Below are positions 1 through 18,803 of a stretch of 59,429 bases of DNA, piece after piece. Position numbers and translations under genes: made by a program. The stretch is taken from contig DASZYA010000029.1 of NCBI GenBank assembly GCA_035545675.1, forward strand, positions 1 to 59,429. Direction: 5' to 3'. A model generated the notes under the pieces. It had not been told where the DNA came from and made no database searches. It saw only the letters and a list, made by a program, of their open reading frames with translations. Source of the stretch: Patescibacteria group bacterium. GTDB taxonomy: Bacteria > Patescibacteriota > Microgenomatia > Levybacterales > GWA1-39-11. Each line of letters begins with the position of its first letter. The first letter of the stretch is position 1.

Positions 1-176
1 CTGCAACCTAAGAATTGTGCGTTTACTTACATTACAGAGCACGAGGTTTAGGGCATCCCGATAATATCGGGAAGATATCGACGAATATCGAAATCTAGAT
101 AGATGATAGTCTTCCTCCGTTGCCGAAAGGCTATGGGAGGATAAGGAAACAGAATCTGGCTTACTATCTTCCTGGC
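1..176 (+). ncRNA. rnpB: RNase P RNA, 3' portion (5' part lies outside the window)
   Basis: 96-111 TAGATAGATGATAGTC and 149-164 ACAGAATCTGGCTTAC match the conserved bacterial RNase P RNA strings UAGAU(A)GAUGAnUGnC and ACAGAAnnnGGCUUA, as remembered from E. coli and B. subtilis. A hairpin at 113-141 (TCCTCC/GGAGGA) capped by a GAAA tetraloop lies between them, like P19. Confidence 0.8.
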
Positions 177-180
177 AAAA

Positions 181-762
181 TTAAATTTTTATATATTCCT
201 CTAATTCTTTTGCGTCTTCATAAAGAAAAGTTTCAAAACCAAGATCTCTTGCCATCTCTATATTTTTTTCCAAATCATCTATAAACAAAGTTTCAGTGGG
301 TTTTACATTTAATAATTCACATATTAGTTCATACATTTTTGGATCATCTTTTCTCATTTTTACATCAGAAGAAAATACTGTTGCATCAAAAAACCTATCT
401 AGATTAACTGTGTATTTTATTGTTTCCGTTTTATAAGTTGGGGAATCAGATAATATTCCAACCTTATATTTTTTTCTAAGCTTTTCAACGAATCTCCAGA
501 GCTCTTCATCTTTTATAACTTGATTTATGTAGGCGACTCCTTCTTGGATTTTTTCTTTCTTAATTCCAGTTGCGTCATAAACGTCTTCTATAAAAGCATC
601 CTTACTTATTTCGCCCCTGGTTATTTGTTCGTCTGCGGGCTTAATTAATTCAAGTAGTCTCTCATCGGTTAGATGTGTACCACTTTTTAAGATTTCCAAA
701 AATCCAACAAGTGATACTTTGTCTAAAACTCCATGCCAGTCAAAAACAATAGCCTTTCTCAT
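181..762 (-). CDS. HAD-superfamily hydrolase
   Basis: 193-aa ORF with FDWHGVLD (motif I-like), SDSPT (motif II) and FIDDLEKN (motif IV). Confidence 0.75.
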   Translation of the reverse strand: MRKAIVFDWHGVLDKVSLVGFLEILKSGTHLTDERLLELIKPADEQITRGEISKDAFIEDVYDATGIKKEKIQEGVAYINQVIKDEELWRFVEKLRKKYKVGILSDSPTYKTETIKYTVNLDRFFDATVFSSDVKMRKDDPKMYELICELLNVKPTETLFIDDLEKNIEMARDLGFETFLYEDAKELEEYIKI

Positions 763-776
763 TTTTTAATTTTATA

Positions 777-3635
777 TTAATTTGTGCCACATAGCATTTT
801 AAATTCACAATTTACACAAAGTACATTTCCACTACATTTGAATTCACTAGACTCAATCTGATTTATTTTTTCTATTAATTCATCTTCTAATTTTTCCAAA
901 TCAGCGGCCGTAAAGGTCATAGTTTTTTTGGTGTTTTCTTCCAAGAAATATAGAGATAGAGTTATATCTTTTGGATCCCTATTAAGAATCGAATCCCGCA
1001 CTCTTGTTGCTGCTAGAGCATACATTGCAAGTTGTAGTTCGTGTGCCTCATGAGCCTTTGGATTATCTGCCCCGGTTTTGTAATCTATAATTTCTATACC
1101 GTCACCATTTTTGTCTATTCTATCTATCTTTCCAAAAACCTTTACACCATTTTTTAATGTAAATGAGAATGGCATTTCCAGAGCTAGCGGAACAATATTT
1201 TTTGAGCTTTCCGTTTTGTAAAATTCTTTTAATATCTCAATTGCCTGGTTATATCTTTCTTCTTCGTGTTTTTTGTTTTGATAACCATCAGATATCCATT
1301 CCTTTTCGAGAATATTAAGAAGATCTGTCTCATTTGGTTTTAGACCGTCTTGAATCAATTTATAAAAGTTGTACAAAGTATTGTGTAGTGATATTCCGAA
1401 ACTTTGCACAAAAACTGTTGGAGTAGGAATATTAAATATTACCTTTGCTTTGTAATGTAGTGGGCATATATCAAACATCTGAAGATTAGAAAATGTAATA
1501 TAAGACACTTTATATGGGCTTTTGTTTTCAATCTTTTCTTCATCATTTTGATAAGTGGACAAAATTTCTGTAAGTGATAATTGTTGGATTCTTTTACTTG
1601 TTTCTACTTTATCTTTTAGGTGGGGTTGTGCTTCAAAAACGAATGGAGAAATTTTCTTGGCTCTTTTTCCTCCTCCATAATAATCAGCAGCTGTCATGTA
1701 TAAATGTTCTTTGGCGCGCGTTATTCCTACATAGAAAAGTCTTCTCTCCTCCTCTAGATGGAAATCAGAAGCTTCATCTACAACTTCCTTTAGTATTCCG
1801 GGAGGCAAAGGAATCTTTTCCTTTCTTTCACGCGAAGGGAATCTGTCAGAGACAAGATTCACTAAGAATACTACTTTGAACTCCAACCCTTTTGATGCGT
1901 GAACCGTTAAAATGTTTACAGCATTTCTGTCTTTCATGTCTACGTCCGCTGCGGTAGGACTATCTCCCATTTGAAGCATGAGATTTAGCCATTCAACCAA
2001 AACAAAAATATTGCTTTCTGGTCTTTCTGTTTCAAAGTTTTTGATTCTGTCAAAAAATTTAGCAATGTTTTGTACTCTTTTCTCATCCTTTGCAGAGTCC
2101 GTTTTGTTAAGGGTTTCAAATAAGCCAGAGTCTATTAAGAAGTAATAAAGTATTTGCCCTGCTTGATCAGTTTTGCTTCTGGTAACGTGTCTTTCAACCA
2201 TTTCATAAAACTTATTAAGTTTTTCTTTTGTATCTTCTTTTAGAAATGTTTGATCATTATTTCTTAATGCTTCAAACAATGTAAGATTCTTTTTCTTTGC
2301 AAAGTTAAGTAAATAATTCAGATCAATTGGTGATATTGCAAAAATATCCATAGAAAGAACTCTGAACAGAGAAACCGAATCAGAGAGGTTAGTAAGAAAT
2401 GATAGATAAGCAATTAAATCTTTTATTTCTTCTTGTTGAAATAAGTATCCAGGGCCTAAGAATTGATAAGGTATTTTGTAGCGGGTCAGAGCACTTGTAA
2501 TGGGATGCGCATGATTATTTGCGCGAACTAAAATTGCAATATCGCTATACTCATAATTTTTATTTGTTAGGTCTTGAATTGTTTTTGCAATTTTATCTGC
2601 TTCATCTTCAGATCTTAATTCATGGATCAATTCAATTTTGCTTTTTAGAGTCCGAGCGTTACTCTTTAGTTTTTTATCGATTCCCTCAACTATCTCTAGC
2701 CTATTTGGATTATTCTTTTGTATCAGTTGGTACGAGGCATCTAGAATTGCCTGAGTAGATCTGTAGTTATTAGTTAGAGTTATAATTTTTGCAGTAGGAA
2801 AATTCTTTTTAAATTGTAGAACATTAGAGACTGCTGCACCTCTAAATCTATATATTGACTGATCATCATCTGCAACTACTGTTATGTTTTTATCGTCTCC
2901 TGCAAGTAGGATTGCTAGTTCATTTTGAGCAAAATTTGTATCCTGAAATTCATCAACCAAAATTTGTTTGAACATTTTTTGGTATCGTTTTAATATCTCC
3001 GGCCTTTTTCTAAAAAGAAGTAAAACGTTTGATATAAGATCTGAGAAGTCCATTACAGATTCTTTTGTTTTAATTTCTTGATAAGCCTTGAACGCATGGG
3101 CAAGTTCTAGGTATTGATCCTTTTCTATTGTGTCTGATTCTTCTGCCCATTTTATATATTCGTCTGGCGTTATATCTTCGTCCGTTAGTCTTGAGAAGTG
3201 AGTAAGTAGGGCATCTAGAAACTTGGTGGGGTTACCTAGGGGTTTAAATATTTTGAGTCCCAGATTAAATATATTTTGACGCATAAGCAGTACACCTTCT
3301 GCCTCCGTTATCAGCTTATATCCTGGATCAAGACCAATAGCGTGCGCTTCGTCGCGTAGAATCCTGTCGCAGAATGAATGAAAAGTGTGAATCCATAAAT
3401 TTGTATACCCATAAGGTAGAAGAATATCTACTCTTTCCTGCATTTCAAAAGCGGCTTTATCTGTAAAAGTTAGAGCAAGAATGTTTGCTGGCGGAACTTT
3501 TTCGTCTACGATAAGGTATTTAATTCTTTCTGTAATAACGGTGGTTTTACCGGTTCCTGCCCCTGCAATTATTAATAGAGGACCAGATTTGTGTTCTACA
3601 GCTTCCTTTTGTTGTTTATTGAGCTCTCTTGCCAT
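777..3635 (-). CDS. UvrD/PcrA-type ATP-dependent DNA helicase fused to a C-terminal PD-(D/E)XK nuclease with a Cys4 cluster
   Basis: Walker A GAGTGKTT plus DEFQDTN, NNYRST, VHASKGLEF and YVGITRAK. The C-terminal part has IDRID...EIIDYKTG, QLAMY, a Cys in CPLHY and CSGNVLCVNC near the end (AddB/Cas4-like Fe-S arrangement). Confidence 0.85.
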   Translation of the reverse strand: MARELNKQQKEAVEHKSGPLLIIAGAGTGKTTVITERIKYLIVDEKVPPANILALTFTDKAAFEMQERVDILLPYGYTNLWIHTFHSFCDRILRDEAHAIGLDPGYKLITEAEGVLLMRQNIFNLGLKIFKPLGNPTKFLDALLTHFSRLTDEDITPDEYIKWAEESDTIEKDQYLELAHAFKAYQEIKTKESVMDFSDLISNVLLLFRKRPEILKRYQKMFKQILVDEFQDTNFAQNELAILLAGDDKNITVVADDDQSIYRFRGAAVSNVLQFKKNFPTAKIITLTNNYRSTQAILDASYQLIQKNNPNRLEIVEGIDKKLKSNARTLKSKIELIHELRSEDEADKIAKTIQDLTNKNYEYSDIAILVRANNHAHPITSALTRYKIPYQFLGPGYLFQQEEIKDLIAYLSFLTNLSDSVSLFRVLSMDIFAISPIDLNYLLNFAKKKNLTLFEALRNNDQTFLKEDTKEKLNKFYEMVERHVTRSKTDQAGQILYYFLIDSGLFETLNKTDSAKDEKRVQNIAKFFDRIKNFETERPESNIFVLVEWLNLMLQMGDSPTAADVDMKDRNAVNILTVHASKGLEFKVVFLVNLVSDRFPSRERKEKIPLPPGILKEVVDEASDFHLEEERRLFYVGITRAKEHLYMTAADYYGGGKRAKKISPFVFEAQPHLKDKVETSKRIQQLSLTEILSTYQNDEEKIENKSPYKVSYITFSNLQMFDICPLHYKAKVIFNIPTPTVFVQSFGISLHNTLYNFYKLIQDGLKPNETDLLNILEKEWISDGYQNKKHEEERYNQAIEILKEFYKTESSKNIVPLALEMPFSFTLKNGVKVFGKIDRIDKNGDGIEIIDYKTGADNPKAHEAHELQLAMYALAATRVRDSILNRDPKDITLSLYFLEENTKKTMTFTAADLEKLEDELIEKINQIESSEFKCSGNVLCVNCEFKMLCGTN

Positions 3636-3647
3636 TGTAGGTAATAC

Positions 3648-3656
3648 ATTGTACCA
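3648..3656 (-). promoter_or_regulatory. Extended -10 element TGGTACAAT, 12 nt upstream of the helicase ATG
   Basis: The minus strand reads TGGTACAAT-gtattacctaca-ATG. No SD is visible. Confidence 0.4.
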
Positions 3657-3674
3657 CAGCCTTAAAAGGGATAA

Positions 3675-4088
3675 TTACTTAACCATTATAGTACCTGTCT
3701 CTGAGGATTTGAATTGATTATGATAGCCAAAAGTTCCGGTATCATTAAATATTGCCTGAACTGTAGTTCCGTTTGGAAATGATCCTAGATTTAGAAATGG
3801 ATATTTATTATTATTGGGGTACGGATCAGAGTTAACTGTTGCATCTTCTCCGCTACTGTTGATCCAAGAAACGGTTTCTCCTTTGTTTATAGTTATGATT
3901 TTAGGTTCAAAACCATTTTTTGTAACCTTAACATCGTTAATCTTTTTTGGAGTAGGGATAGGGGTTTCATTAGCTTGATCTTCTGTAGAATATTGAGGTT
4001 GATTCGTATTTTTGTTTGAAGCAAGAAATATTCCCCCAATAACAACCACAATGAAAAGAACTAGAATCCAAATTGCTTTATTGCTCAT
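3675..4088 (-). CDS. Membrane-anchored cupredoxin-like domain protein (Cu ligands not evident)
   Basis: N-terminal TM helix. The stretch KGETVSWINSSGEDATVNS...GTFGYHNQF...GTIMV resembles the plastocyanin-like beta-sandwich pattern, but there is no Cys. Confidence 0.45.
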   Translation of the reverse strand: MSNKAIWILVLFIVVVIGGIFLASNKNTNQPQYSTEDQANETPIPTPKKINDVKVTKNGFEPKIITINKGETVSWINSSGEDATVNSDPYPNNNKYPFLNLGSFPNGTTVQAIFNDTGTFGYHNQFKSSETGTIMVK

Positions 4089-4138
4089 ATATTCTCAAAG
4101 TAGCATATTTATTTGAGCTCTGTCAAATAAAATAATGG

Positions 4139-4378
4139 TTGCAAAAAAAGATGATTAAAGATATTATAGTTAAACTTTCCTCTATGGCTAAGCCTAAATT
4201 TAATTTTAAATACACGCTTGAGAACAAAGACACAGATCCCTACACCTCAATTGAAGTTCTGAAAAAAGCTTGGGAAGACTTACCGGAGGACTTCACTTTT
4301 GGAGAGAGATCGCTTTTCATCGAATTAGCAGAAAGAATAATAAAGATAACTGAAGCCCCAGAAAATACAGCAAATTAA
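4139..4378 (+). CDS. Hypothetical small protein (likely starts at ATG 4151)
   Basis: 79-aa ORF with a TTG start in the track and ATG 4 codons in. I recognise no motif. Confidence 0.35.
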   Translation: MQKKMIKDIIVKLSSMAKPKFNFKYTLENKDTDPYTSIEVLKKAWEDLPEDFTFGERSLFIELAERIIKITEAPENTAN

Positions 4379-5355
4379 GCTTGCAACAATTCTTTCTCTT
4401 CTGCTTCGAGATTTTTTGTATTTTTAATCTTATCTCCCAGTCTACTAAAAGAAGTTTCTGCTGTTTTCATCATGTTGTAAGAGTTTGTTATGTGTTTGTT
4501 GAGAGTGTCAAGACTATCTCCAACTTTTTCATACTCTGTTTGAATGGAGCGAAGTGCTGATAATATTTTTTGAGCATGCATCGTAATTTTTTGTCCCTCA
4601 AATCCCATGAGTATTGCTCTTAGAAACGCATAGAAAGTCATAGGAGAGACTGGTAATACACGGTGTTTTTGGGAATAATCAAAAATTGTTGAGTTATTAA
4701 CTATCTCGTAATAAACGGATTCTGATGGAACGTACATTAGGGCATAGTCTATAGTTCCTTCTGCTGGTAATATGTATTTTTTTGCAATGTCATCAATATG
4801 TTTTTTAACATCATTTGTAAATGATTTCTCCGCAATTTTTTTCTCAGCTTCTGTTTCTGACTCATTCATAGCTCTAAAATTTTCCATTGGAAACTTTGAA
4901 TCAATTGGAATAATTCCAGCCTCAGTTTTTATTGCGGCATCAACTATTGACCCACTCTTGAATGCATACTGCATATTGAAAGATGCCTTCGGAAGCATTT
5001 GTGAAAGCAATTCTTTTAAAACCTGTTCTCCAATATTGCCACGTAGTTTTGGGCTTTTTAAAAAATCATTTAAGTCTTTCATGGAGCGCCCAATCTCACT
5101 CATTTCTCCAATATTTTTTTGAACAGCACCAATTACCTGAGCGGCCCTATCTAGTCTTTCATTTAAAGCTTGAGTATTTGAAGCAAGAGTTGAGTTCATG
5201 CTTTTTGAATTTTGGTCAAAACTTACTTGCATAGATTTCATCCACTCTAGCATTGCTTTGTCTTGAGTGCTATTCTGCTTTTTATTTATGAGGTATATAA
5301 CAATTCCAAAGCCAATTATGAGAATTGAAGATATGACGAGCAGGTCAGAATTCAT
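4375..5355 (-). CDS. rmuC: DNA recombination protein RmuC
   Basis: N-terminal TM helix, a coiled region, GNIGEQVLKELL and YALMYVPSESVYYE are typical of the RmuC family. I prefer ATG 5355 (MNSDLLV...) over the track start at 5385. Confidence 0.8.
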   Translation of the reverse strand: MNSDLLVISSILIIGFGIVIYLINKKQNSTQDKAMLEWMKSMQVSFDQNSKSMNSTLASNTQALNERLDRAAQVIGAVQKNIGEMSEIGRSMKDLNDFLKSPKLRGNIGEQVLKELLSQMLPKASFNMQYAFKSGSIVDAAIKTEAGIIPIDSKFPMENFRAMNESETEAEKKIAEKSFTNDVKKHIDDIAKKYILPAEGTIDYALMYVPSESVYYEIVNNSTIFDYSQKHRVLPVSPMTFYAFLRAILMGFEGQKITMHAQKILSALRSIQTEYEKVGDSLDTLNKHITNSYNMMKTAETSFSRLGDKIKNTKNLEAEEKELLQA

Positions 5356-5365
5356 GGTGAGGTAT

Positions 5366-5374
5366 ATTTTACCA
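5366..5374 (-). promoter_or_regulatory. Extended -10 element TGGTAAAAT, 10 nt upstream of the rmuC ATG
   Basis: The minus strand reads TGGTAAAAT-atacctcacc-ATG. Confidence 0.4.
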
Positions 5375-5430
5375 TAATAAATCAAGTTGTTTATAAAATT
5401 TTAACGCTCTTGGTTGAGAAGGACGAGAGT

Positions 5431-5967
5431 TTAGCGAATATTGTTTTTTTCGAGAGTTTTGTAGAGAACTATTGCAAGGGAGACCATTGTATTTATGGAA
5501 ACATTTACTCCAAGCATTGGGAGTTCCACAATTTGATCACAAAGTGTTAAGACCTCTTCGCTTATTCCATGAGTTTCGTTTCCAATAATAAGAGCTACGG
5601 GATAAGAATAATCTGCCTTTGTGTAATCAATGCTTCGCTTATCAAGTTCTATGCCAATAATTTTTATATCTTTTATCTTTGATCTGAGATCTTTAATTGC
5701 ATCCTCAGTTTTTTCAAAGTGTTGCCACTCTGTGAGATCAACGGTGTTGATGGAAGATTTTTTAATTCTAGTATTTGGAGGAGTTTCTGTATATCCGCAA
5801 AGCAATATTTTTTTTGCACCTGTCGCATCAGCTAAACGAAAAACTGCACCAACGTTGTATGTATCAAGCACGTTATCAAGAATTATATAGAGTTCATTTT
5901 TCTTGATTAAATCGTTCTTTAATTTTCCCGTTTCACTCCTTCTGAGTTCTGATGAATTCAGTTTCAT
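5431..5967 (-). CDS. SpoU/TrmH-family RNA 2'-O-methyltransferase
   Basis: VLDTYNVGAVFRLADA, LIIGNETHGIS and the C-terminal knot region VSINTMVSLAIVLY. Confidence 0.8.
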   Translation of the reverse strand: MKLNSSELRRSETGKLKNDLIKKNELYIILDNVLDTYNVGAVFRLADATGAKKILLCGYTETPPNTRIKKSSINTVDLTEWQHFEKTEDAIKDLRSKIKDIKIIGIELDKRSIDYTKADYSYPVALIIGNETHGISEEVLTLCDQIVELPMLGVNVSINTMVSLAIVLYKTLEKNNIR

Positions 5968-5974
5968 ACTAGGT

Positions 5975-5980
5975 ATTATA
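5975..5980 (-). promoter_or_regulatory. -10 box TATAAT 7 nt upstream of the trmH-family ATG (context TGATATATAAT)
   Basis: The minus strand reads TATAAT-acctagt-ATG. No SD is visible. Confidence 0.35.
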
Positions 5981-5999
5981 TATCAAAATGCTTATTCTT

Positions 6000-6157
6000 C
6001 CACTTTTGTGCCGACAAAAGTGGAGTAAAAACTTTCGTCATGCGTTACTCATGCTCTCAAATCTCATTCGTTTATCGGGGAACTTCACCCCTTCCGTATT
6101 CACGGAATTCCCCTGAACACTCAATCGATTTTCATGCATTCCGTACTAAAATGACGA
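6000..6157 (-). ncRNA. Unclassified structured RNA candidate, copy A (5' leader or free-standing sRNA)
   Basis: Outer stem 6035-6041/6151-6157. The 57-nt core 6067-6123 is 48/57 identical to 18650-18706. The hairpin 6093-6106 has a compensatory change relative to copy B. A trailing 10-bp hairpin lies at 6000-6023. Confidence 0.55.
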
Positions 6158-6196
6158 TTAAAATCTAAAAAAATCAATGGAAATTAAAAATTAACA

Positions 6197-6225
6197 AATA
6201 TAAATTATTCTTGGATATTGTCTAA
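6197..6225 (-). promoter_or_regulatory. Sigma70-like promoter TTAGAC-17-TATATT upstream of RNA copy A
   Basis: Hexamers read on the minus strand with hand-counted 17-nt spacing. Confidence 0.3.
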
Positions 6226-6227
6226 TA

Positions 6228-8306
6228 TTAATTAACTTGGGGCTCGGGAGTTTCTGTAGCTTTGGCTTCCGGCTTCTTGTTTGGGTCTACAACGGGAACT
6301 GCTTGTTTTTCTAATTCCGCTTTTGTCCAAACTGCAAAGTCACATTTCGGATAATTTCCACAGCCATAGAAAGTTCTTCCTTTTCTTGTTCTTTTCATTA
6401 CCATTTTTCCTTGATCGCGAGGACAGAGATACCCAGAATCCTCAACGATTGATTCACGGAATTTACACGTTGGGAAGTTACTACATGCTTTAAATTTACC
6501 AAACCTTCCAACTCTTATTACTACATCTCCGCCATCAAGTGGACATATTTCTCCGGTTTTTTCCAGTTTTATTTCAATCTTTTCCTCTTTTTCTGCTTTC
6601 TCTATATGTTTCTCAAGAGGTGTATAAAAGTCTTTTACAATAGGTACCCAACCAATTTTTCCCTCTGCAACTTCATCAAGTTTATCCTCCATGGTTGCCG
6701 TAAAAGGAATATCATCAATCTCTCCAAAATTTTTAACTAAGAAGTTATTTACCATGGTTCCTATTTCTGTTGGTTTAAATCTTCCTTCATCTTTTTCTAC
6801 ATAAAATCTTGCAGTAATAGTAGAGATAATAGGTGCATAGGTAGATGGTCTTCCTATACCGTGTTTTTCTAGGGCACCAATTATTGATGCTTCGTTATAG
6901 CGTGGTGGAGGAGTAGTTTTGTGTAGCGTATTTTTGACCTCTAACAAATTTAAATTATCATTTACGGCAAGCGTTGGTATTAATTGCTCATCATCTTCAT
7001 AAAACCAAACTTTTAGAAATCCATCAAACTTCATAACACGGCCATTTGCTTGGAAAAGATATGTTTTCCCATTTTTACTTTCTACATCAAGCCTACTGGA
7101 TAGAAAAATCGCATCATTCATTTGAGTTGATAAAGCCCTTTTATATATAAGGTTATATAGCTTCGCAAAATCTTTCCCAAGTTTTGCACTTACCGCCTCT
7201 TCATTTTCAAATAAATTAGTTGGTCTTATTGCCTCATGAGCTTCTTGTGCTAGCTTTGATTTTGTTTGGTAGGTACGAGGAGTTTCTGGCAAATATTTTT
7301 TACCAAAGTTTTTTTCAATGTAATCACGTGCTTCACGGAGAAAATCTGCTGATAGATTATAAGAATCGGTTCTGTGATAAGTAATAAAACCTTCTTCGTA
7401 TAATCTTTGTGCAAGACTCATTGTTCTTTTGCTGGGGTATCCAAAGCGGCGGCTAGCCTCCATCTGAAGCATGGATGTTGTAAATGGAGGGTAGGGGGAT
7501 CTTTTAGTTTCTTTTTGAGAAAGATCTGCTACCGTAAATTTTCTTGTTGCTAGTTCTTTCTTGAGATTTTCTGCATCATTTTCTGAAAGCCCGGTTTTTT
7601 TGTAATTGTACTCTCCATCATAAAGTTTGATTGTATTTGTTGATTCAATATTTTCACTATCTATCTTTACAAGCTCCAATGTTATTGGTTCTGTTTTTTT
7701 ATCTTTGTATAGAACTACAAAAACACGAGCAAAATCTTCGCTTTTAAACCTTGCTACTTCTTGTTCTCTTTCTACAATTAGTCTTAAGGCGATTGACTGT
7801 ACGCGTCCTGCTGATAAACCTTTTTTAATTTTCATCCACAAAACCGGAGAGAGTTTGTATCCTACAACACGATCAAGAACTCTTCTTCCGGTTTGAGCTT
7901 CAACAAGATTCATATCAATGTCTTTGGGATGTTCTAGTGCTTCGTTTATTGCACGAGGTGTGATTTCATGAAAAACAATTCTGTCAAATTTTGTTCCCTT
8001 TTTAACTTCATCAGACAAAACTTCTTTAAGATGGAAAGAAATAGCTTCTCCTTCACGATCAGGGTCAGTTGCCAATATTACGCGGTCAACATCTTTTACA
8101 TCGCTTTTTAAGCCTTCAATTATTTTCCTTTTATCTTTAGGAATTACATATTTAGGTTCAAAATTGTGCTCAATATCTACTCCCAAAGCTCCTTTTGGAA
8201 GATCTCTAATGTGTCCCATTGAGGCTTCAATAATATATTTATCCCCCAAAAATCTTGTTAAGGTTTTGGCTTTAGTTGGCGATTCGACAAGTATTAATGA
8301 TTTCAT
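6228..8306 (-). CDS. topA: DNA topoisomerase I
   Basis: TOPRIM N-terminus MKSLILVESPTKAKT, active-site region ITYHRTDS, and two C-terminal Cys4 zinc ribbons. Confidence 0.95.
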   Translation of the reverse strand: MKSLILVESPTKAKTLTRFLGDKYIIEASMGHIRDLPKGALGVDIEHNFEPKYVIPKDKRKIIEGLKSDVKDVDRVILATDPDREGEAISFHLKEVLSDEVKKGTKFDRIVFHEITPRAINEALEHPKDIDMNLVEAQTGRRVLDRVVGYKLSPVLWMKIKKGLSAGRVQSIALRLIVEREQEVARFKSEDFARVFVVLYKDKKTEPITLELVKIDSENIESTNTIKLYDGEYNYKKTGLSENDAENLKKELATRKFTVADLSQKETKRSPYPPFTTSMLQMEASRRFGYPSKRTMSLAQRLYEEGFITYHRTDSYNLSADFLREARDYIEKNFGKKYLPETPRTYQTKSKLAQEAHEAIRPTNLFENEEAVSAKLGKDFAKLYNLIYKRALSTQMNDAIFLSSRLDVESKNGKTYLFQANGRVMKFDGFLKVWFYEDDEQLIPTLAVNDNLNLLEVKNTLHKTTPPPRYNEASIIGALEKHGIGRPSTYAPIISTITARFYVEKDEGRFKPTEIGTMVNNFLVKNFGEIDDIPFTATMEDKLDEVAEGKIGWVPIVKDFYTPLEKHIEKAEKEEKIEIKLEKTGEICPLDGGDVVIRVGRFGKFKACSNFPTCKFRESIVEDSGYLCPRDQGKMVMKRTRKGRTFYGCGNYPKCDFAVWTKAELEKQAVPVVDPNKKPEAKATETPEPQVN

Positions 8307-8345
8307 AAATTTTACAAGAACTAGTATAGCAGGTGGAAGTTAGGG

Positions 8346-8374
8346 ATTGTAAAGTATCAAAAACAATTTTGCAA
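8346..8374 (-). promoter_or_regulatory. Sigma70-like promoter TTGCAA-17-TACAAT for topA
   Basis: Read on the minus strand, immediately after the tsaD stop. Confidence 0.45.
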
Positions 8375-8377
8375 GAT

Positions 8378-9511
8378 CTAGGCAAAGTAGAGGTCTGGGG
8401 TAGCATTTATTTTTTCCCAATCAACCGGTTTGTAAGAAAGAAGGGCGTAGGCGCCAATCATAGCACCGTTATCCATCGTATATTTTTTTTGTGGTACAAA
8501 TATTTCAATTGGAAGTTTATCCTTTACAATTTTTTCTTTAAGATCTTCCGTTAATTTTTGATTTGCAGAAACTCCTCCTCCAAGAAGTATTGTATTAACA
8601 TTATAAAATTTTGCCGCCTTGAGCGTTTTTCTAATTAGTACTTCTATTATTGATTCTTGTAGTGAGGCACATAGATCAAAAAGTAATTGTTTTTTTTGAG
8701 TTGGCAAATTTTCTATATCTATTTTTTCCCAAGAGTAGCCATTTTCAGTTTCTTTCCTCGCAACGCTAAATTCTTTGTTAACAACGTTCATAAAAGCAGT
8801 TTTGAGTCCGGAAAAAGAGAAATCAAAGTCATCTCCCGTCATAATTTTTGGAAGTGGAACATTTTTTGCGTTTCCAAAGCTGGCTAATTCTGCAATTTTT
8901 GGTCCTCCTGGATATGGATATCCAAGTAATCTTGCGCATTTATCAAAACATTCTCCTGCCGCATCATCTCTTGTTCCACCTAACCATTTATATTTATCAA
9001 CAGATTCAAAATAAACTAGATCTGTATGCCCTCCAGACACAATGAGTGCAACGAATGGATATTTAATCTTAGATTTTGGATCTTGGGAATGATCTTGAAT
9101 AAAGTTTGCGAATATATGACCAAGTAAATGATTAACTGGAACAAGGGGTTTGTTAAATGTAAGAGATAATGTTTTTGCTGTTTCTACCCCAACGAGTAGT
9201 GACCCAATTAGTCCAGGGCCATACGTTACAGCTATCGCATCAACGTCAACTTGTAGTATTTTTTGAGCATTTTCCCATGATTCATAATCCATACTTGCTG
9301 ATTCATTCAAGGCTTTAACAATTGTTGGGATAATTGCTTTTATTTGTTCGCGGGCTGCAAATTCTGGAATTATTCCGCCAGTCTTTGCATGTAAATCAAG
9401 AGATGTAGCAGTAATATTTGATAGGACTTCAACTGAAGTAGAGTTTTCTTTTTTCTCTACAACAGCAACGCTTGTCTCGTCACAGCTAGTTTCAATGCTC
9501 AAAATTTTCAT
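8378..9511 (-). CDS. tsaD: tRNA N6-adenosine threonylcarbamoyltransferase TsaD (Kae1/Gcp family)
   Basis: MKILSIETSCDETSVAVV, VNHLLGHIF and GGGVSAN. Confidence 0.92.
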   Translation of the reverse strand: MKILSIETSCDETSVAVVEKKENSTSVEVLSNITATSLDLHAKTGGIIPEFAAREQIKAIIPTIVKALNESASMDYESWENAQKILQVDVDAIAVTYGPGLIGSLLVGVETAKTLSLTFNKPLVPVNHLLGHIFANFIQDHSQDPKSKIKYPFVALIVSGGHTDLVYFESVDKYKWLGGTRDDAAGECFDKCARLLGYPYPGGPKIAELASFGNAKNVPLPKIMTGDDFDFSFSGLKTAFMNVVNKEFSVARKETENGYSWEKIDIENLPTQKKQLLFDLCASLQESIIEVLIRKTLKAAKFYNVNTILLGGGVSANQKLTEDLKEKIVKDKLPIEIFVPQKKYTMDNGAMIGAYALLSYKPVDWEKINATPDLYFA

Positions 9512-9531
9512 AGGATCAAAAGAGGACTTAA

Positions 9532-10011
9532 CTATTTTATACCTTTGAAGGTTATCTTTGTTCCGTTGGTGATTCCTAGATCCTTTGCTTTTCCAGCATT
9601 CACCTCTAATACATAGTTTGCATCTTGGTCGGGATAATAAATTGTAAGAGGACTTGTCTGTCCACTTGGTGCTGGAGCATCACTAACTATATAAACAACC
9701 GTATCATCGTTAATATAGATAATATCTATCGGGAATTTCATATCTTTCATCCAGAAGCCCGGCTTTCCTTTTTTATCGAATATAAATAGCATTCCTTGAT
9801 TAGTGCCTAGATCTTTTCTACCAGAAAGACCCTTTTGTCTATCTCCTTCTGTTTTTGCTAAATATAGACTTAGGGTTTTTCCGTTTACGGTTGCAGTAGC
9901 ATTGCTTGGGCCTTTTGGAAGGAAAGAGAGAAGATTTCCACCATTCCTAACCATGACAAGTAGTACAACTACAACAATTAATACTATGTAGACTAGAATT
10001 ATTTTTTTCAT
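9532..10011 (-). CDS. DUF192 domain protein with N-terminal TM/signal
   Basis: GLSGRKDL..GMLFIF...FWMKDMKFPIDIIYI matches the DUF192 pattern. Confidence 0.75.
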   Translation of the reverse strand: MKKIILVYIVLIVVVVLLVMVRNGGNLLSFLPKGPSNATATVNGKTLSLYLAKTEGDRQKGLSGRKDLGTNQGMLFIFDKKGKPGFWMKDMKFPIDIIYINDDTVVYIVSDAPAPSGQTSPLTIYYPDQDANYVLEVNAGKAKDLGITNGTKITFKGIK

Positions 10012-10478
10012 ATTCTTGCTTTATTTATTATATTTGTTGTTGAATAATCCTTTATTGGTTTTATTACTTCAACAATCTTTGCGTTTTGGGCTTTTACGTA
10101 TCTTTTTTCCCATTCAAAAATGGGTGCTCCAGCCGTGAGTGCAATTATATCAGGTTGTATCATTTTCACAAGAGCTTCGTAACTTTGGTCATTTTCCATA
10201 TAAGGAAGAGGAATTACATAATCTACCATGGATAGATTAGATAGAATTGTAGCTCTATCTTCTTGTGTATTTATGGGGCGATTATTTCCCTTTAACTCTT
10301 TAATTTTCTGATCTCCTTCAAGGATTACTACTAATATGTCTCCTCTTTCTTTTGCTTTCTTCAAAAACTCAATGTGTCCTGTATGAAGAATGTCAAAACA
10401 ACCACCGGCGAGCACTAGCTTCTGGTTCACATGGTTTTTGACTTTGTCTAGTTCTTGTAGATTTAGGATAATTCCCAT
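10008..10478 (-). CDS. Cytidylyl/adenylyltransferase-like protein (RfaE domain II / TagD-like)
   Basis: GGCFDILHTGHIEFL (HxGH nucleotidyltransferase motif). 4-nt ATGA overlap with the downstream gene. Confidence 0.75.
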   Translation of the reverse strand: MGIILNLQELDKVKNHVNQKLVLAGGCFDILHTGHIEFLKKAKERGDILVVILEGDQKIKELKGNNRPINTQEDRATILSNLSMVDYVIPLPYMENDQSYEALVKMIQPDIIALTAGAPIFEWEKRYVKAQNAKIVEVIKPIKDYSTTNIINKARI

Positions 10479-10493
10479 TGTATTGAATAAGAT

Positions 10494-10555
10494 TTATGAA
10501 TTATGAACAATAGAGCGGTCAAGTGATTTCTTAATTCGTACTTCGTGATTCATTC
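10494..10555. repeat. Degenerate heptamer arrays in the vanW/cytidylyltransferase spacer
   Basis: TTATGAA x2 at 10494-10507. TTCTTAA TTCGTAC TTCGTGA TTCATTC at 10528-10555. Confidence 0.6.
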
Positions 10556-10563
10556 TGCAAATA

Positions 10564-11976
10564 TTATGTTTTTGTTCCTCTAAGGAAAACTGCTTGCCAG
10601 GGTTTATAGACAGAAACAAAAGTATCGTTAATAATTTCTTTACCATCTCTTGTTACGGTTCTTGTAAATACAGATTTTGCTCCAGGAGCTGCAAAATCAA
10701 CCTGTTTAATTGTTCCGGCAGGTAGTGTTGGATCATCCTGATAAACATCTGGTGGGGCGGGTGCTACATTAGAGATTACCGGCTGGCTTATGGAAACTTT
10801 TCTGCCATCACTTTTTCCATAAATCGTGAAGGTAAGACTTAAATTATCTGTATCTGCTAGAGCCTGAATAAATATGTAGTGTCCTGTGTCATTTTTAAAT
10901 TTAAAGTCTACAGTAGGTACGTATGTTGTTGCATCGAGTCCTGGAGGAGCATCTTGCTCATAATATCCTACGCGGTATGCATGTGCATGACGTTCTGTTA
11001 TGGGAAGGCCAGCATTTAAAACTGCTCGGAAAAGAGTCGTTGAGACCTGACAAACTCCTCCACCATCTCCTAAGACTGTTTTTCCACCAGATATAACATA
11101 GGCTTGTGCATAACCAGTGTAAGCAGAAACATCTCCTAGGGTTTTGTCAAAAGAAAATTCTTCTCCAGGAGCAACTAGTGCTCCGTTAATTTTTGAGGTG
11201 GCAAGGGCTACATTATGAACGCGTCCAGGAATTGAATGATAAAAAGTTGATGTTCCAACTCCGATAGGTTCAACTATTCCCAGATTGTTTGCTTCCTCAG
11301 TTGTGGTATCAGGCTTTATTATTTTTATTGGAATATCAATTGTGTGTATGGTTGGTTTTTGGGCAAGGAGATTGGGAACAATATTTCTCATAGTTTTATT
11401 TAGTGAATTGTAATCAAGTAGTTCCCCGTTGCTAGATTGTTTAAATGCAACTACTTTATTGTTTTGTACATTAAACTCTGCATTAACTGGATCTTTGGCT
11501 ACACTTTTTTCAATTTTCGATAGTTTTGTTTTTAGTACATCTTCGTTGTATGTATATGAAGGTCTTAGAAATGTTCCGTTAAGGTACGAAGATAAAATTA
11601 TGTAAGCATCACTGAGTAAATCTCTTCCTTTACCAAGACTCAGTGATTGATCAATCATAAGGTTTGCGTCATATCCAATTCCCAAATCTTTTGCAGAAGC
11701 CGTTGCTATTTGGTCATTCACTTTGAAAGTGAAAGAATTTTTGGAGATTGAGTTGTTTTTTTCAGTAAACAATTGTTGTATTTGATCTTCTGTTTTTTCT
11801 CCTACATATGTATTGCCAATAAATACCCCGGGTATTACGCGATTTCTATATCTATATTGAAAATAAAACATTACAAAACTTGAAAGAAGTGCGCCGGATA
11901 ATAAAAATCCTACAGCAAACCAATAGAAAGATTTTAAGAAGTAATTTACTGACTCTTTTTTAACTATACGTTTCAT
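10564..11976 (-). CDS. VanW family protein (N-terminal TM)
   Basis: The C-terminal region GGGVCQVSTTLFRAVLNAGLPITERHAHAY is characteristic of the VanW domain. Confidence 0.85.
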   Translation of the reverse strand: MKRIVKKESVNYFLKSFYWFAVGFLLSGALLSSFVMFYFQYRYRNRVIPGVFIGNTYVGEKTEDQIQQLFTEKNNSISKNSFTFKVNDQIATASAKDLGIGYDANLMIDQSLSLGKGRDLLSDAYIILSSYLNGTFLRPSYTYNEDVLKTKLSKIEKSVAKDPVNAEFNVQNNKVVAFKQSSNGELLDYNSLNKTMRNIVPNLLAQKPTIHTIDIPIKIIKPDTTTEEANNLGIVEPIGVGTSTFYHSIPGRVHNVALATSKINGALVAPGEEFSFDKTLGDVSAYTGYAQAYVISGGKTVLGDGGGVCQVSTTLFRAVLNAGLPITERHAHAYRVGYYEQDAPPGLDATTYVPTVDFKFKNDTGHYIFIQALADTDNLSLTFTIYGKSDGRKVSISQPVISNVAPAPPDVYQDDPTLPAGTIKQVDFAAPGAKSVFTRTVTRDGKEIINDTFVSVYKPWQAVFLRGTKT

Positions 11977-12030
11977 CCATTTAATAGATTTTTGAAAGTA
12001 TAAAGTATTATACTATATTCAAGGCTAAAA

Positions 12031-13419
12031 ATGGACGAAAATATTAACCAACCACCGCAGGAATATAATCCTCAAGCAGATGTGGCCTCAGGCCCGCCAA
12101 TAAAGAAGATAGTAAGTCTTGTTATTGGACTTGTTGTAATAGTATTAATAGCAGTTCTAGTCTTTGTTGTGGTTCTTCCAAAGTTTTCCAAAAAGGAACC
12201 TAAAAATGTAACCTTAAAATACTGGTCAATTTATGAGGATAATGCACCTCTTGAGGCAGCTGCAGCTGACTTTACTAGGAAAAATCCCAACATAAAGATT
12301 GTTATTGAGAATCAAGATATTAAATCTTTAGGAAAATACGCTACAAGACTTGCAACAAGAATAAATCAAGGAACAGGGCCTGATATTTTTAGATTCCATA
12401 ATAGTTGGACGCCAGAATTAAAAGATTATCTTTTGCCTTTGCCGCAAAGCGTTGTTAAAACGCTTCAATTGCAAGATAAATATTACCCTGTTGTAGAAAA
12501 CGATTTAAAAATTAATGGTGCTTGGTATGGAGTTCCAACTCATTTTGATACTCTTGCGCTTTTTGTTAACACAGAAATTTTTAATAAAGCTGGAATTAAT
12601 AATTATCCAACCACGTGGGATGATGTAATTGCAACGGCAAGGCAACTTACGGTTAAGGACCCGGATGGTAAAATAATAACCTCAGGTGCTTCTCTTGGTA
12701 CTTTTGATAATGTTGCTCATGCTCCTGATATCGTATCTCTGCTTATGGCTCAAAATGGAGCAAATCTAAAAGATCTAGGAGGAAAAACCAGGCAAAATAC
12801 AATTGATGCTTTGGATTTTTATACATCTTTTGCAAAAGGAGATACTGCTGTTTGGGATAATACTCTTGAGAACTCAAAGCTTGCTTTTGCGAAAGGAAAT
12901 GTTGCTATGTATATAGGTTATTCTTGGGATATTTTTGAGATGAAAAATATAAATCCAAATTTACAGTTTGCAGTAGTTCCTGTACCTAAATTACCTGGTA
13001 GGTCAATGACCGTAGCAAGCTATTGGGTAGATGGGGTATCTTCTAAAACTAAATATCCGGAAGAGGCTTTTAAATTCTTAAACTACATAGCGTCAACTGA
13101 GGTTATGCAAACTATATATGCTCAGGAGGCAAAAACTAGAGGGTTTGGTGAGCTGTATCCAAGAAGTGATATGGCAGGCCAGCTAAAGTCTAATACTCTA
13201 ATTTATCCATTTGTTCAACAAGGTAATGAAGCCGTGTCAACAATGTTTTCATCTGATACTTACGATGCTGCTATGATAGATGCACTCAACCAGTATTTAG
13301 GAAACGCTGTAAATTCTATAGTGGACGACAGTTCGTCACCGGATAGTGCAGTTGACACTCTAGTAAAAGGAATTACGGAAGTTACAACCAAATATGAAAG
13401 CTCAGGACAAAGTAAATAA
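12031..13419 (+). CDS. Extracellular solute-binding protein (ABC family 1), membrane anchored
   Basis: N-terminal TM, then SBP_bac_1-like features (GTGPDIFRFHNSW, YGVPTHFDTLALFVN). No permease or ATPase gene is adjacent. Confidence 0.75.
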   Translation: MDENINQPPQEYNPQADVASGPPIKKIVSLVIGLVVIVLIAVLVFVVVLPKFSKKEPKNVTLKYWSIYEDNAPLEAAAADFTRKNPNIKIVIENQDIKSLGKYATRLATRINQGTGPDIFRFHNSWTPELKDYLLPLPQSVVKTLQLQDKYYPVVENDLKINGAWYGVPTHFDTLALFVNTEIFNKAGINNYPTTWDDVIATARQLTVKDPDGKIITSGASLGTFDNVAHAPDIVSLLMAQNGANLKDLGGKTRQNTIDALDFYTSFAKGDTAVWDNTLENSKLAFAKGNVAMYIGYSWDIFEMKNINPNLQFAVVPVPKLPGRSMTVASYWVDGVSSKTKYPEEAFKFLNYIASTEVMQTIYAQEAKTRGFGELYPRSDMAGQLKSNTLIYPFVQQGNEAVSTMFSSDTYDAAMIDALNQYLGNAVNSIVDDSSSPDSAVDTLVKGITEVTTKYESSGQSK

Positions 13420-14332
13420 TTTTGAAAAATCTATAATAAAGACCCTTTCTTATTCTGATATCTTTAGTTATCCATTAACTGCTTCTGAAATTAATAAATA
13501 CTATATGGGAAAACCAATTGATAAGAAGGATTTTAATAACACTCTCAAAGAAATGGTAGATAATTTATATATTCAGAAAAGAGGTAAATACTATTTTCTA
13601 AATGGAAGAGGAGATTTTGTAAATTTAAGAAGAAAAAGAGAAAGGATTGGTCACCACAAGCTTTTGTTTGCTAAAAAAATTGCTAATAAACTTTCTATTA
13701 TTCCAACAGTTAAATTAATTGGTTTGAGCGGAAGTTTATCTATGAACAACGCTGATAGGGGAGATGATATAGATTTTTTCATAATAACTTCAAAGAATTC
13801 TATTTGGATGACAAGACTTATTGTGACAATCTTTCTATTAATATTAAAAGTTAAAAGGTCTAGATATGATTCTTATGGTATGGATTTAATTTGTCCAAAT
13901 ATGTTTGTTGATGAATCAGATCTTTCCATGGAAGAAAATATTTTTATTGCTCATGAAATAGCCCAGCTTAAAGTCTTAGTAGATAAGGGTAGCTCATATA
14001 AAAGGTTTGTGGGGAGTAATCTTTGGGTTAAAAAGATCCTTCCAAATGTAAACATAGAAAAGGCTGAAGGTTTTAGAACTAATAATTCGTTGATTTTAAA
14101 AGTGCTAGATTATTTATTTTTTTCTTTGCAGTTTCTCTATATGAAGAGAAGAATTACCAATGAAACTGTAGGGCCAAAAATAGCTCGTTTTCACCCCCAA
14201 AATAAACGCGATTTTGTTACCGATTTATATGCCAAAAGATGCCGAAATTACCTCCAAAATTTGGCCAAATGTAAGAGAAATTTGAGCCCCAAAATACCCG
14301 ATTTAGCCTCGAATTTTACTCCAGGATATTGA
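13394..14332 (+). CDS. Pol-beta-superfamily nucleotidyltransferase-like hypothetical protein
   Basis: GLSGSLSMNNADRGDDIDFFII resembles the GS...DxD minimal NTase motif. Confidence 0.45.
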   Translation: MKAQDKVNNFEKSIIKTLSYSDIFSYPLTASEINKYYMGKPIDKKDFNNTLKEMVDNLYIQKRGKYYFLNGRGDFVNLRRKRERIGHHKLLFAKKIANKLSIIPTVKLIGLSGSLSMNNADRGDDIDFFIITSKNSIWMTRLIVTIFLLILKVKRSRYDSYGMDLICPNMFVDESDLSMEENIFIAHEIAQLKVLVDKGSSYKRFVGSNLWVKKILPNVNIEKAEGFRTNNSLILKVLDYLFFSLQFLYMKRRITNETVGPKIARFHPQNKRDFVTDLYAKRCRNYLQNLAKCKRNLSPKIPDLASNFTPGY

Positions 14333-14359
14333 CATCCAAATTTGCATCCTGTATATAAT
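14329..14359 (+). promoter_or_regulatory. Sigma70-like promoter TTGACA-17-TATATA(AT) for greA
   Basis: TTGACA 14329-14334, 17-nt spacer ending in TG, TATATA 14352-14357 (TATAAT 14354-14359). Confidence 0.55.
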
Positions 14360-14422
14360 AACTCTGGTTAAAAAAAACCAAGAAACGTCCCCTAAAAAAT
14401 GATGGGGATTTATTGTAAATAA

Positions 14423-14905
14423 ATGGATAATAACAACAAGAAAAAAGTATTTGTAACAAAAGAAGGTCTCGAAGAATTAAAGAGAGAACTTCAGGATTTA
14501 AATGACGTAAAAAGACCACAAGTTTTGGATCGTGTTTCTCAGGCACGTTCAATGGGTGATCTTTCTGAAAACTCAGAATACACGGCAGCTCGTGAGGAGT
14601 TATCTTTGATTGACGGTAGAATTGAAGAGCTCTCAGATATTATTAAGCACGCAGATCTTATTGAAGAAACCCACACAAAGGGATCAAAATCCACAATCCA
14701 ACTTGGATCAATTATTGCTGTATCAATCAATGGTAAAAAAGAGGAATTTTCATTGGTTGGAGAATGGGAAGCAGATCCAAAGAATAAAAAAATCTCACAT
14801 GAATCACCACTTGGAAAAGCTCTTATGGGCAAAGCAATTGGTGAGAAAGTAGAAGTAGAGGCACCTGCTGGTAAGGTAGTCTATACGGTAGTTGGAATTA
14901 ACTAG
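14423..14905 (+). CDS. greA: Transcription elongation factor GreA
   Basis: N-terminal coiled coil (LEELKRELQDL...GDLSENSEYTAAREE) and C-terminal FKBP-like domain. Confidence 0.92.
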   Translation: MDNNNKKKVFVTKEGLEELKRELQDLNDVKRPQVLDRVSQARSMGDLSENSEYTAAREELSLIDGRIEELSDIIKHADLIEETHTKGSKSTIQLGSIIAVSINGKKEEFSLVGEWEADPKNKKISHESPLGKALMGKAIGEKVEVEAPAGKVVYTVVGIN

Positions 14906-14932
14906 AAATAGTTAAAAAATCTAAACTACCAC

Positions 14933-14953
14933 AAACCCCGAAAGGGGTTTTTT
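14933..14953 (+). terminator. Intrinsic terminator after greA
   Basis: AAACCCC-GAAA-GGGGTTT followed by a T-run. Confidence 0.8.
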
Positions 14954-14981
14954 CTTATCTAGAGTATAATAAAATAATCAT

Positions 14982-18576: not shown

Positions 18577-18585
18577 ATTTTCTTT

Positions 18586-18742
18586 GTACTTTTGAGCCGC
18601 CAAAAGTACCAAAAGCTCTTTTGCGTGCAATCCGGACTAATTTTATTTCTTCGCTTATCGGGTGATTTCACCCCCTCCGAATTCTCGGAATCCCCCTGAA
18701 CGCTCACGTATAAAATCTTAACGTCCTCTGTTGCACATGCAA
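18586..18742 (-). ncRNA. Unclassified structured RNA candidate, copy B
   Basis: Outer stem 18621-18630/18731-18742, core 18650-18706, hairpin 18676-18689, trailing 9-bp hairpin 18586-18609. Confidence 0.55.
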
Positions 18743-18762
18743 AAATAAGGAAGCTAGCTTGT

Positions 18763-18791: not shown

Positions 18792-18803
18792 GTTTGATAT
18801 ACT

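Follow-up and report, generated by a model that had tools for sequence, protein, structure and literature searches.

Several kinds of described elements come close to the one treated here. Orphan structured RNA motifs found by comparative genomics (of the Weinberg/Breaker type, raiA for example) show strong covariation, a narrow range and no consistent gene association. The ERIC/IRU elements of enterobacteria, the Correia elements of Neisseria and the BOX and RUP elements of pneumococci are present in tens to hundreds of similar copies with conserved ends. To our knowledge, almost nothing is known about the non-coding RNAs of the Candidate Phyla Radiation (CPR). Here, we analyze a stretch of 59,429 nucleotides from a Patescibacteria group bacterium (contig DASZYA010000029.1), called the window throughout, and in particular a minus-strand element at 5991-6157, called copy A, which lies between topA and a methyltransferase gene. 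Copy A is one of two window paralogues (the other is called copy B) in a new family of structured RNAs of ca 170-200 nt, and we consider it, with a probability of about 0.45, to be a self-contained and portable module that works as an RNA in its own right. Comparison of sequences shows the family to be strand-specific, supported by covariation, absent from Rfam and modular, with a patchy distribution that hops between sites. It is a well-supported new structured RNA family in the CPR with clear covariation and an unusual architecture: a rod, an apex with two G-runs and one C-run, and an AU-rich hairpin. There is also direct comparative evidence of gain and loss of the module, one gain lying exactly between the promoter and the start codon of an otherwise leaderless gene.

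The family has the conserved junction core and the variable, covarying closing stems of a riboswitch with its expression platform. Some members are true 5′ leaders with the 3′ hairpin by the start codon, and two mutually exclusive pairings are possible. Unlike a riboswitch, however, the family has an inconsistent context, with many members lacking a downstream gene, and it matches no Rfam model. Its closing stem takes the form of a very long rod in which non-canonical loops are conserved, its last hairpin is neither a U-tailed terminator nor a sequestor of the Shine-Dalgarno (SD) sequence, and one of its scaffolds bears an unrelated apical domain. With the 6S, 4.5S/signal recognition particle (SRP) and bacterial Y RNAs it shares the long irregular hairpin, the conserved internal loops and the conserved apical or central part, and also the occurrence of paralogues in one genome and what appears to be a function independent of the neighbouring genes. 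It differs from them in that it matches no model, lacks a 6S-type bubble and the motifs of SRP domain IV, is not kept across close relatives and lies sometimes inside 5′ untranslated regions (UTRs).

The resemblance to the ERIC/IRU, Correia and BOX/RUP elements concerns size and habit: these too are transcribed intergenic elements of ca 100-200 bp that form imperfect-palindrome RNA rods, are patchy among relatives and modular, and are found in 5′ or 3′ UTRs in either orientation. The present family, in contrast, has one or two copies per genome or contig with 58-79 % identity, its ends vary while its centre is conserved, and it shows clear compensatory evolution in place. The orphan motifs share with it the covariation, the narrow range and the inconsistent gene association. 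What sets it apart from them is that it is not in Rfam 15, has no match in the literature searched and occurs in a Microgenomates-type clade only, and that insertion at leaderless promoters is documented for it.

Family Members and Database Searches

In the window, a 35-nt core pattern (up to 3 mismatches) is matched by copies A and B only, with 0 matches expected from shuffles, and core covariance models R1 (filters off) and R2 (default filters) found no further copies there. Homologues were found by exact-pattern scans of large genome and metagenome collections, after which syntenic regions were searched with R1 and R2. The genome scan gave three true matches (contigs L001, L002 and L004 of metagenome-assembled genomes) and one chance match, and the metagenome scan two true (L005 and L006) and two chance matches. 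The covariance searches added four members: L017, which scores 62.8 bits, a second one on L002 (L002b), and L032a and L032b, which score 15-23 bits with R1 and 39-46 bits with R2. The original prediction had compared copies A and B; a search for homologues thus adds nine intact members outside the window, giving 11 in 8 contigs (A, B, L001, L002a, L002b, L004, L005, L006, L017, L032a and L032b), besides two relics and a variant, called L009-X, whose apical domain is a different one. The members are ca 170-200 nt long and 58-79 % identical overall, and they group by subtype across genomes rather than by genome: copy A is closer to L004 and L005, and copy B to L017 and L006. To date, the family is known solely from a narrow clade of Microgenomates-type Patescibacteria. 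By its SpoU and RlmI-like homologues, the window falls within Patescibacteria, close to genomes named Levybacteria or Daviesbacteria.

That copy A is an unclassified structured RNA on the minus strand, as originally predicted, is borne out. The whole window has no match in Rfam 15 at the gathering score. At E≤10, copy A has only chance eukaryotic matches and copy B none, and the diverged member L032a and the variant L009-X have no match at E≤5. A positive control, run in the E-value mode too, recovered the RNase P RNA of the clade with 72 bits (E=3e-22). Since a divergent RNase P RNA is detected in this mode, the negative Rfam result for the family is meaningful.

Scans for transfer RNA (tRNA) and transfer-messenger RNA (tmRNA) found none. 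The core pattern has 0 matches in viral contigs, and a blastn search of phage and plasmid collections did not match the core. A pattern for the 3′ module gave nine viral matches, all of them from one phage coding sequence (GAFDAFGEK), and these were dismissed as chance. A conserved small open reading frame (ORF) was also rejected, the short ORFs being different among the members. Literature searches for the core sequence returned no relevant paper, and those on structured or small RNAs and leaderless translation in Patescibacteria returned nothing relevant either.

Structure and Covariation

Copy A folds as a long rod with an energy of −50.8 kcal mol−1 (z=−3.85), and copy B likewise with −49.3 kcal mol−1 (z=−2.42). 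Every member consists of one long irregular hairpin followed by a second, AU-rich one. The rod is built from the helices P1, P1b, P2 and P2a, with tandem G⋅A motifs, and it comes in two scaffold types. In the six type-2 members used for the covariation analysis, 13 of the 20 rod pairs have changed on both sides and 89 % of the cells are paired. None of 500 shuffles matches this, and when the partner columns are slid only 33-48 % pair. For the core helices, 95 % of the cells are paired and four pairs are compensatory. Compared with its reverse complement, the forward strand of the element is 4-10 kcal mol−1 more stable in all nine elements tested, and it has as many G⋅U pairs or more. The given strand thus folds better than its complement, which makes the minus strand of the window the functional one.

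Re-reading of the sequence confirms the parts from which the structure was originally predicted; all positions of copy A and copy B below refer to the minus strand. In copy A, the outer stem is formed by UCGUCAU (6151-6157) and AUGACGA (6035-6041). The core at 6067-6123 is identical to copy B (18650-18706) at 48 of 57 positions. The stems that enclose this core differ in sequence between the two copies, yet both pair. The inner hairpin UUCCGU-GAAU-ACGGAA (6092-6107) is UUCCGA-GAAU-UCGGAG in copy B, with a compensatory change from U:A to A:U, and the arms of the trailing hairpin are common to both copies (6000-6023 in copy A, 18586-18609 in copy B).

The 5′ strand of the copy A rod extends over 6125-6157. 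It contains P1 (the 6151-6157 strand given above), the type-1 scaffold motif AUGCAUGA (6132-6139), which is also present in L004, L005 and L009-X, and the P2 strand AAAUC (6127-6131). It is followed by the conserved apical core (6063-6124), which matches both R1 and R2 and scores 89.5 bits. The core begins with the 5′ strand of P2a, UUGAGU (6119-6124), and J1, GUUCA (6114-6118), and continues with G-run 1, CAGGGGAA (6108-6115), the P4 hairpin (6092-6107), G-run 2, GGAAGGGGUGAA (6084-6095), and the segment GUUCCCCGAUAAACGAAUGA (6064-6083), which comprises the loop end GUU, the C-run CCCC, J3 and the 3′ strand of P2a. The 3′ strand of the rod (6035-6063) then carries the P2 strand GAUUU (6059-6063), the scaffold motif GAGAGCAUGAG (6048-6058) and the P1 strand AUGACGA. 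Last comes the 3′ module (5991-6034), with its U-rich linker (6024-6034), the trailing hairpin CCACUUUUG-UCGGCA-CAAAAGUGG (6000-6023) and the A-rich tail AAGAAUAAG (5991-5999).

Copy B (18577-18755; 87.7 bits with the covariance model) is a paralogue of copy A with the type-2 scaffold. Its core is at 18646-18707, its 3′ hairpin GUACUUUUG-GCGGCU-CAAAAGUAC at 18586-18609 and its tail AAAGAAAAU at 18577-18585. The type-1 scaffold has AUGCAUGA opposite GARAGCAUGAG and is found in A, L004, L005 and L009-X. In the type-2 scaffold, seen in B, L001, L002a/b, L006, L017 and L032a/b, GNNC-GUUAAR stands opposite UAG-NNC. L005 is a hybrid element. The type-2 internal loop takes hairpin insertions in L001 and L032a. 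At this loop we observe the small hairpins CCCCGCUUAGCGGGG (L001, ca 5770-5790, minus strand) and AGCCUGAAAGGC (L032, ca 8905-8916, plus strand), which convert it to a three-way junction.

Within the conserved core, P2a is a 6-bp helix with a central tandem G⋅A. The apex consists, in order, of CAGGGGR, the P4 hairpin (14 to ca 50 nt), GGARGGGG, a variable stretch of 7-9 nt and CCCCGAYRAG. The junction nucleotides are highly conserved and the peripheral stems vary. The motif GGGGUGAA is invariant in the first eight sequences and is lost in the diverged members. Both conserved G-runs are complementary to the single C-run, and the three runs vary in length in step with one another, being 4/4/4 in type 1 and 5/5/5 elsewhere. 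In the pairing models, a toggle at the apex between the G-run 1:C-run and the G-run 2:C-run pairings is possible. The second G-run contains an SD-like GGAGG in most members. The idea of an SD mimic was rejected, GGGGUGA not being kept in the diverged L032a/b and L002b; GGARGGGG is the conserved form.

The variant L009-X (L009 16333-16515, plus strand) has the type-1 scaffold, the GAGCUUUUGG linker and the 3′ hairpin, with an unrelated apical domain of ca 80 nt that contains AAGGAGG. Scaffold and apical domain may be exchangeable modules.

In general terms, the 3′ module consists of a U-rich linker (consensus GAGCUUUUGG), a hairpin NNNCUUUUG-NCGGNN-CAAAAGNNN and an A-rich tail. It is present in all 10 members that have their 3′ end inside the contig (L002b leaves its contig before). 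There is covariation in the outer pairs of the hairpin and, in L032a, in the U/A run as well (CUCUUG/CAAGAG). The 9-nt tail AAAGAAAAU is identical in copy B and L017, and the linker CUUUUGG has three possible pairing partners, the 5′ leader, the 3′ arm of the hairpin and the tail. An intrinsic terminator was considered and rejected: the hairpin is AU-rich and is followed by AAGAAUAAG or AAAGAAAAU, with no U-run. A terminator scan skips it and finds a canonical terminator after greA (14933-14950). Moreover, the essential topA lies behind the hairpin in L017, so that the hairpin is no efficient terminator. As a separate observation, terminator-like sites (a GC hairpin with a T-run) at positions 1-20000 of the window are fewer than in shuffled sequence, 5 versus 12.4.

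Insertion Sites and Gene Context

We now turn to the sites at which the module is found. The site of copy B is the clearest case. In the closest relative, L019, whose RlmI-like protein is 83 % identical, the methyltransferase gene is leaderless and reads TTGATT-17-GATAAT-acgcat-ATG, with no RNA. The window has the same GATAAT −10 box, followed by the 179 nt of copy B and then by the ATG (18574-18576). L020 and L022 are likewise leaderless at this site and without the RNA. Because a relative has an empty leaderless site behind the conserved promoter, copy B has, on this comparison, been inserted after the promoter and before the start codon of the methyltransferase gene. Copy B is accordingly a true 5′ leader of this gene (Methyltrans_SAM, RlmI/K/L-like, 4e-15; 17713-18576). 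The gene upstream, Ham1/RdgB, is divergent from copy B.

The original prediction gave each copy a promoter of its own. For copy B this does not hold: the promoter in question, TTGCTT-17-GATAAT (18791-18763, with the −10 box GATAAT at 18763-18768), belongs originally to the methyltransferase gene. A site upstream of copy A is indeed present, TAGACA-16-TATATT at 6197-6224 on the minus strand (10 of 12 positions matching in the promoter scan). However, promoter-like sites are not enriched in the window (67, versus 70.5 in shuffles), and the site is for this reason weak evidence. Copy A is probably transcribed either from this site or by read-through from topA (6228-8306), which lies upstream. Downstream is the methylase gene of the SpoU/TrmH family (SpoU_methylase, 4e-32; 5431-5967), below called trmH or SpoU, with a promoter and start of the leaderless type, TATAAT-N7-ATG (5965-5980, minus strand), outside the element. 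Relatives without the RNA have an equivalent promoter. Copy A ends before this intact promoter, from which trmH could be expressed with no need for the transcript of the RNA, and control of trmH by copy A is therefore most likely absent. The alternative, already raised originally, of a free-standing RNA next to a trmH that keeps its own TATAAT-N7-ATG fits the data.

It is important to point out that most genes of the window have a TATAAT-like box 6-16 nt before the ATG, no SD sequence and A-rich starts (for example at 5965-5980, 14960-14984 and 777-3660). It seems that most mRNAs of this genome have no leader or a very short one.

The gain and loss of the module can be followed at three further places. 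The L017 member lies between the promoter and the ATG of topA, with the start codon 9 nt past the hairpin, and the same stretch is uninterrupted in the window. The spacer between topA and SpoU, where the window has copy A, measures 0-32 nt in L011, L012, L014, L016, L017 and L018. In L009/L010 it has a relic, the 3′ half of a copy A-type element that is 98 % identical over 59 nt, and in L032 it contains a type-2 member instead of the type-1 member of the window. The spacer between rnpB and miaA, finally, carries L001, L032b or L009-X and is empty in other relatives. L017 also contains a stand-alone 3′ module, CUACUUUUG-GCGGCC-CAAAAGUAG after a U-rich linker (19196-19232, plus strand), at a distance of 10 nt from the downstream ATG of a DXP_synthase_N/transketolase gene. 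L011, L016 and L018 lack the 82-nt spacer in which it lies, and the module is probably the remnant of a full element. From these comparisons of relatives, we conclude that we are dealing with a portable, self-contained module. Its intergenic sites differ between genomes, some being within 5′ UTRs and some standing alone, and deletions remove it.

Both copies in the window are followed by a gene for a SAM (S-adenosylmethionine)-dependent RNA methyltransferase, as noted originally, and the domain matches (SpoU_methylase and Methyltrans_SAM/RlmI-like) confirm this. Elsewhere the downstream genes are of other kinds. Four stand-alone members face convergent genes, namely miaA (L001 and L032b), a diacylglycerol kinase gene (L004) and comF (L006, which is divergent from smpB). 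L005 is followed, 8 nt past the hairpin, by an ORF with a signal peptide, i.e. a secreted protein, and L002a by an AAA ATPase gene, ca 125 nt away, that has its own promoter. L032a adjoins SpoU, behind SpoU's own TATAAT-N7-ATG, and is the only one of the nine intact members outside the window with a methyltransferase neighbour. Conversely, orthologous methyltransferase genes are without the RNA in 8-9 relatives, and it is absent at both sites in relatives whose SpoU or RlmI-like proteins are 69-88 % identical to those of the window. The RNA comes and goes between unrelated genes and is hence no switch dedicated to methyltransferase genes; the family is not tied to them. Two adjacencies to one gene class within a single window are no evidence of a regulon.

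Weighing the Explanations

We favour a module that acts as an RNA in its own right. The rod would serve as a scaffold, probably bound by a protein or a ligand, and the apical domain could toggle between the G-run pairings, always leaving one G-run exposed. In copy B, L017 and L005, where a promoter precedes the module and an AUG follows it, the translation-initiation region of a formerly leaderless gene would come to consist of the A-rich 3′ arm of the last hairpin and of the tail. This explanation is preferred because the stand-alone members, which have no gene to regulate, stay intact and keep compensatory changes, which points to selection on the RNA where it sits.

A number of points weigh against it. 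In three members and one relic, 8-10 nt separate the hairpin from a start codon, an arrangement that looks more like that of a cis-acting leader than of a trans-acting RNA. For a stand-alone RNA, the last hairpin without a U-tail leaves termination unaccounted for, and the promoters of the stand-alone members are not convincingly conserved. The promoter scans are inconsistent in this respect, with promoter-like sites upstream of copy A and L006 and none convincing for L001 or L032b. The two apical pairing models score alike on 8-11 sequences, and when the window was searched for sequences complementary to the exposed G-rich stretch, nothing meaningful came up and no target stood out. The RNA ends and the expression are themselves predicted. 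The exact patterns, finally, are too strict for estimating abundance: all diverged members came from synteny look-ups, and the size and range of the family are therefore underestimated.

The serious rival is a portable cis-regulatory leader, which we regard as a possibility of perhaps one in four. The module would be a riboswitch or RNA sensor for a general signal, not for a methylation metabolite, with the apical junction as the aptamer. Ligand-dependent choice of the G-run, or stabilization of P1 and its extension into the linker, would set the pairing of the U-rich linker with the A-rich tract before the AUG and thereby translation, and the stand-alone copies would be decaying or would act on read-through transcripts. 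Copy B, L017 and L005 suit this well, lying as they do between promoter and start codon in the order hairpin, AAAGAAAAU, AUG, and so do the relic that retains only the 3′ module 10 nt before an ATG and the conserved junction nucleotides among variable peripheral stems. The alternative pairings of the linker CUUUUGG with 5′ leader, hairpin 3′ arm and tail, and the A-rich start regions without SD sequences in the genome of the window, would also fit. Yet in 6 of the 10 members with known downstream context there is no gene to regulate, the gene being convergent or having its own promoter, and the candidate targets (an rRNA methyltransferase, topA and a secreted protein) are unrelated. The members at rnpB-miaA, with no downstream gene, are nevertheless intact and have compensatory changes, and the unrelated apical domain on the type-1 scaffold of L009-X would be odd if this scaffold were the P1 of an aptamer. 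The narrower form of this proposal, which develops one of the two original suggestions, namely a riboswitch of the SAM or S-adenosylhomocysteine (SAH) type that controls SAM-dependent RNA methyltransferase genes through a methylation-related ligand, has largely been refuted, and we give it hardly any chance. It could draw on the methyltransferase genes that follow both window copies, copy B as a true 5′ leader. However, no SAM, SAH or other Rfam model matches, the downstream genes elsewhere are unrelated, and outside the window only L032a adjoins a methyltransferase gene, where SpoU keeps its leaderless promoter. Furthermore, the orthologous genes of 8-9 relatives do without the RNA, and in Patescibacteria, which are rich in RNA-modification genes, two such adjacencies would not be surprising.

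It is also conceivable, though improbable, that the element is non-autonomous mobile DNA, similar to miniature inverted-repeat transposable elements (MITEs), to PATEs (palindrome-associated transposable elements) or to a small retroelement. The fold would then serve transposition as a single-stranded DNA or RNA intermediate, and insertion near leaderless promoters would reflect a target preference or tolerated sites. The presence/absence polymorphism with clean empty sites, the different subtypes at one site (topA-SpoU, type 1 in the window and type 2 in L032), the modular shuffling (the hybrid L005, L009-X and the stand-alone 3′ modules), the relics, and the back-to-back copies of L002 beside toxin-antitoxin genes are all what such an element would leave behind. 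On the other hand, the ends are the least and the centre the most conserved part, whereas the inverted repeats of transposons show the reverse. At the two mapped junctions (copy B and L017) no duplication of the target site can be seen, and the gene tables list no transposase, reverse transcriptase or integrase next to a member. Copies are few, with one exact-pattern match on each of the three matching contigs in the scan of species-representative genomes, and the core is absent from the viral, phage and plasmid collections. Copies that are only 58-79 % identical still keep their pairing by compensatory changes, which implies selection on each resident copy. The same grounds led us to reject a remnant of a MITE or inverted repeat: the outer stems vary most, no duplication is seen at the mapped junctions, and the 59 kb contain two copies. 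A self-contained module is more likely than a plain transposon remnant. Slightly better placed, but still doubtful, is a combination of mobility and function: a transposable riboregulatory or catalytic cassette that enters between the −10 box and the start codon and keeps the leaderless gene expressed. One way to do so would be to supply an A-rich initiation tract governed by a G-run/C-run conformational switch. The other would be to leave the mRNA, by self-cleavage or by directed processing immediately before the AUG, in which case it would be a new class of ribozyme or processing element. Either route, if true, would be a new mode of spreading for regulatory RNA in genomes without SD-led translation.

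The last explanation is a strongly diverged known class missed by the Rfam models, such as 6S RNA, SRP RNA, Y RNA or the ydaO cyclic di-AMP riboswitch, and we consider it very improbable. The rod-like shape with its conserved apical part would fit, as would the two paralogues per genome, which 6S RNA has in some bacteria. Words such as GGGGUGAAUC and CACCCGAC presumably also occur in ydaO-type riboswitches, a lead only, checked as far as Rfam. Against this, A, B, L032a and L009-X, searched in short stretches, have no relevant Rfam match under conditions that do reveal the RNase P RNA of their clade (E=3e-22). There is no large 6S-like central bubble, J1/J3 being 5×5 nt and apparently paired, no GNRA/AGCA SRP motif is seen in the sequences, and the patchy presence among close relatives is ill-suited to a core housekeeping RNA. 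6S RNA itself was rejected on account of the absent Rfam match, the small internal loops and the pair-like co-variation of J1/J3. Comparison by eye with the consensus sequences of the kink-turn, the hammerhead core, the T-box, elements like that of hepatitis delta virus (HDV), SRP domain IV and 5S RNA gave none that fits, and none has support from Rfam.

Should the self-contained module be regulatory, it would show how leaders arise on leaderless genes. Should a protein or a small molecule bind to it, it would point to an unknown ribonucleoprotein or signal in these reduced organisms.

Further Observations

Some side observations concern the contigs on which members or their relatives are found. 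L001 (CAZIAP010000005.1) and L002 (CAZLZN010000048.1) are titled “uncultured Gammaproteobacteria”, and both carry the RNA family. The labels look wrong. The gene order RNase Y-HU-MiaA on L001 is common to Patescibacteria relatives. On L002, a contig of 2.4 kb, the two members are placed back to back and are divergent (1-165, minus strand, and 170-355, plus strand), and it also has an AAA ATPase gene and, judging from the sequences, an apparent HicA/HicB toxin-antitoxin pair.

The class A RNase P RNA that adjoins the rnpB-miaA spacer is located at 15662-15971 (minus strand) in L012, where its 72 bits are below the Rfam gathering score of 100, so that it is missed at the gathering threshold. The same RNA is found at ca 15870-16260 in L009, ca 15740-16060 in L011 and ca 14160-14530 in L032.

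In L022, there is a gene-free stretch of 650 nt between secA and serS (2833-3484) with several GC-rich hairpins, in which no tRNA, tmRNA or core match was found. It also contains an AU hairpin, CAUUUUUG-UAGGCA-CAAAAAUG, that resembles the 3′ module of the family.

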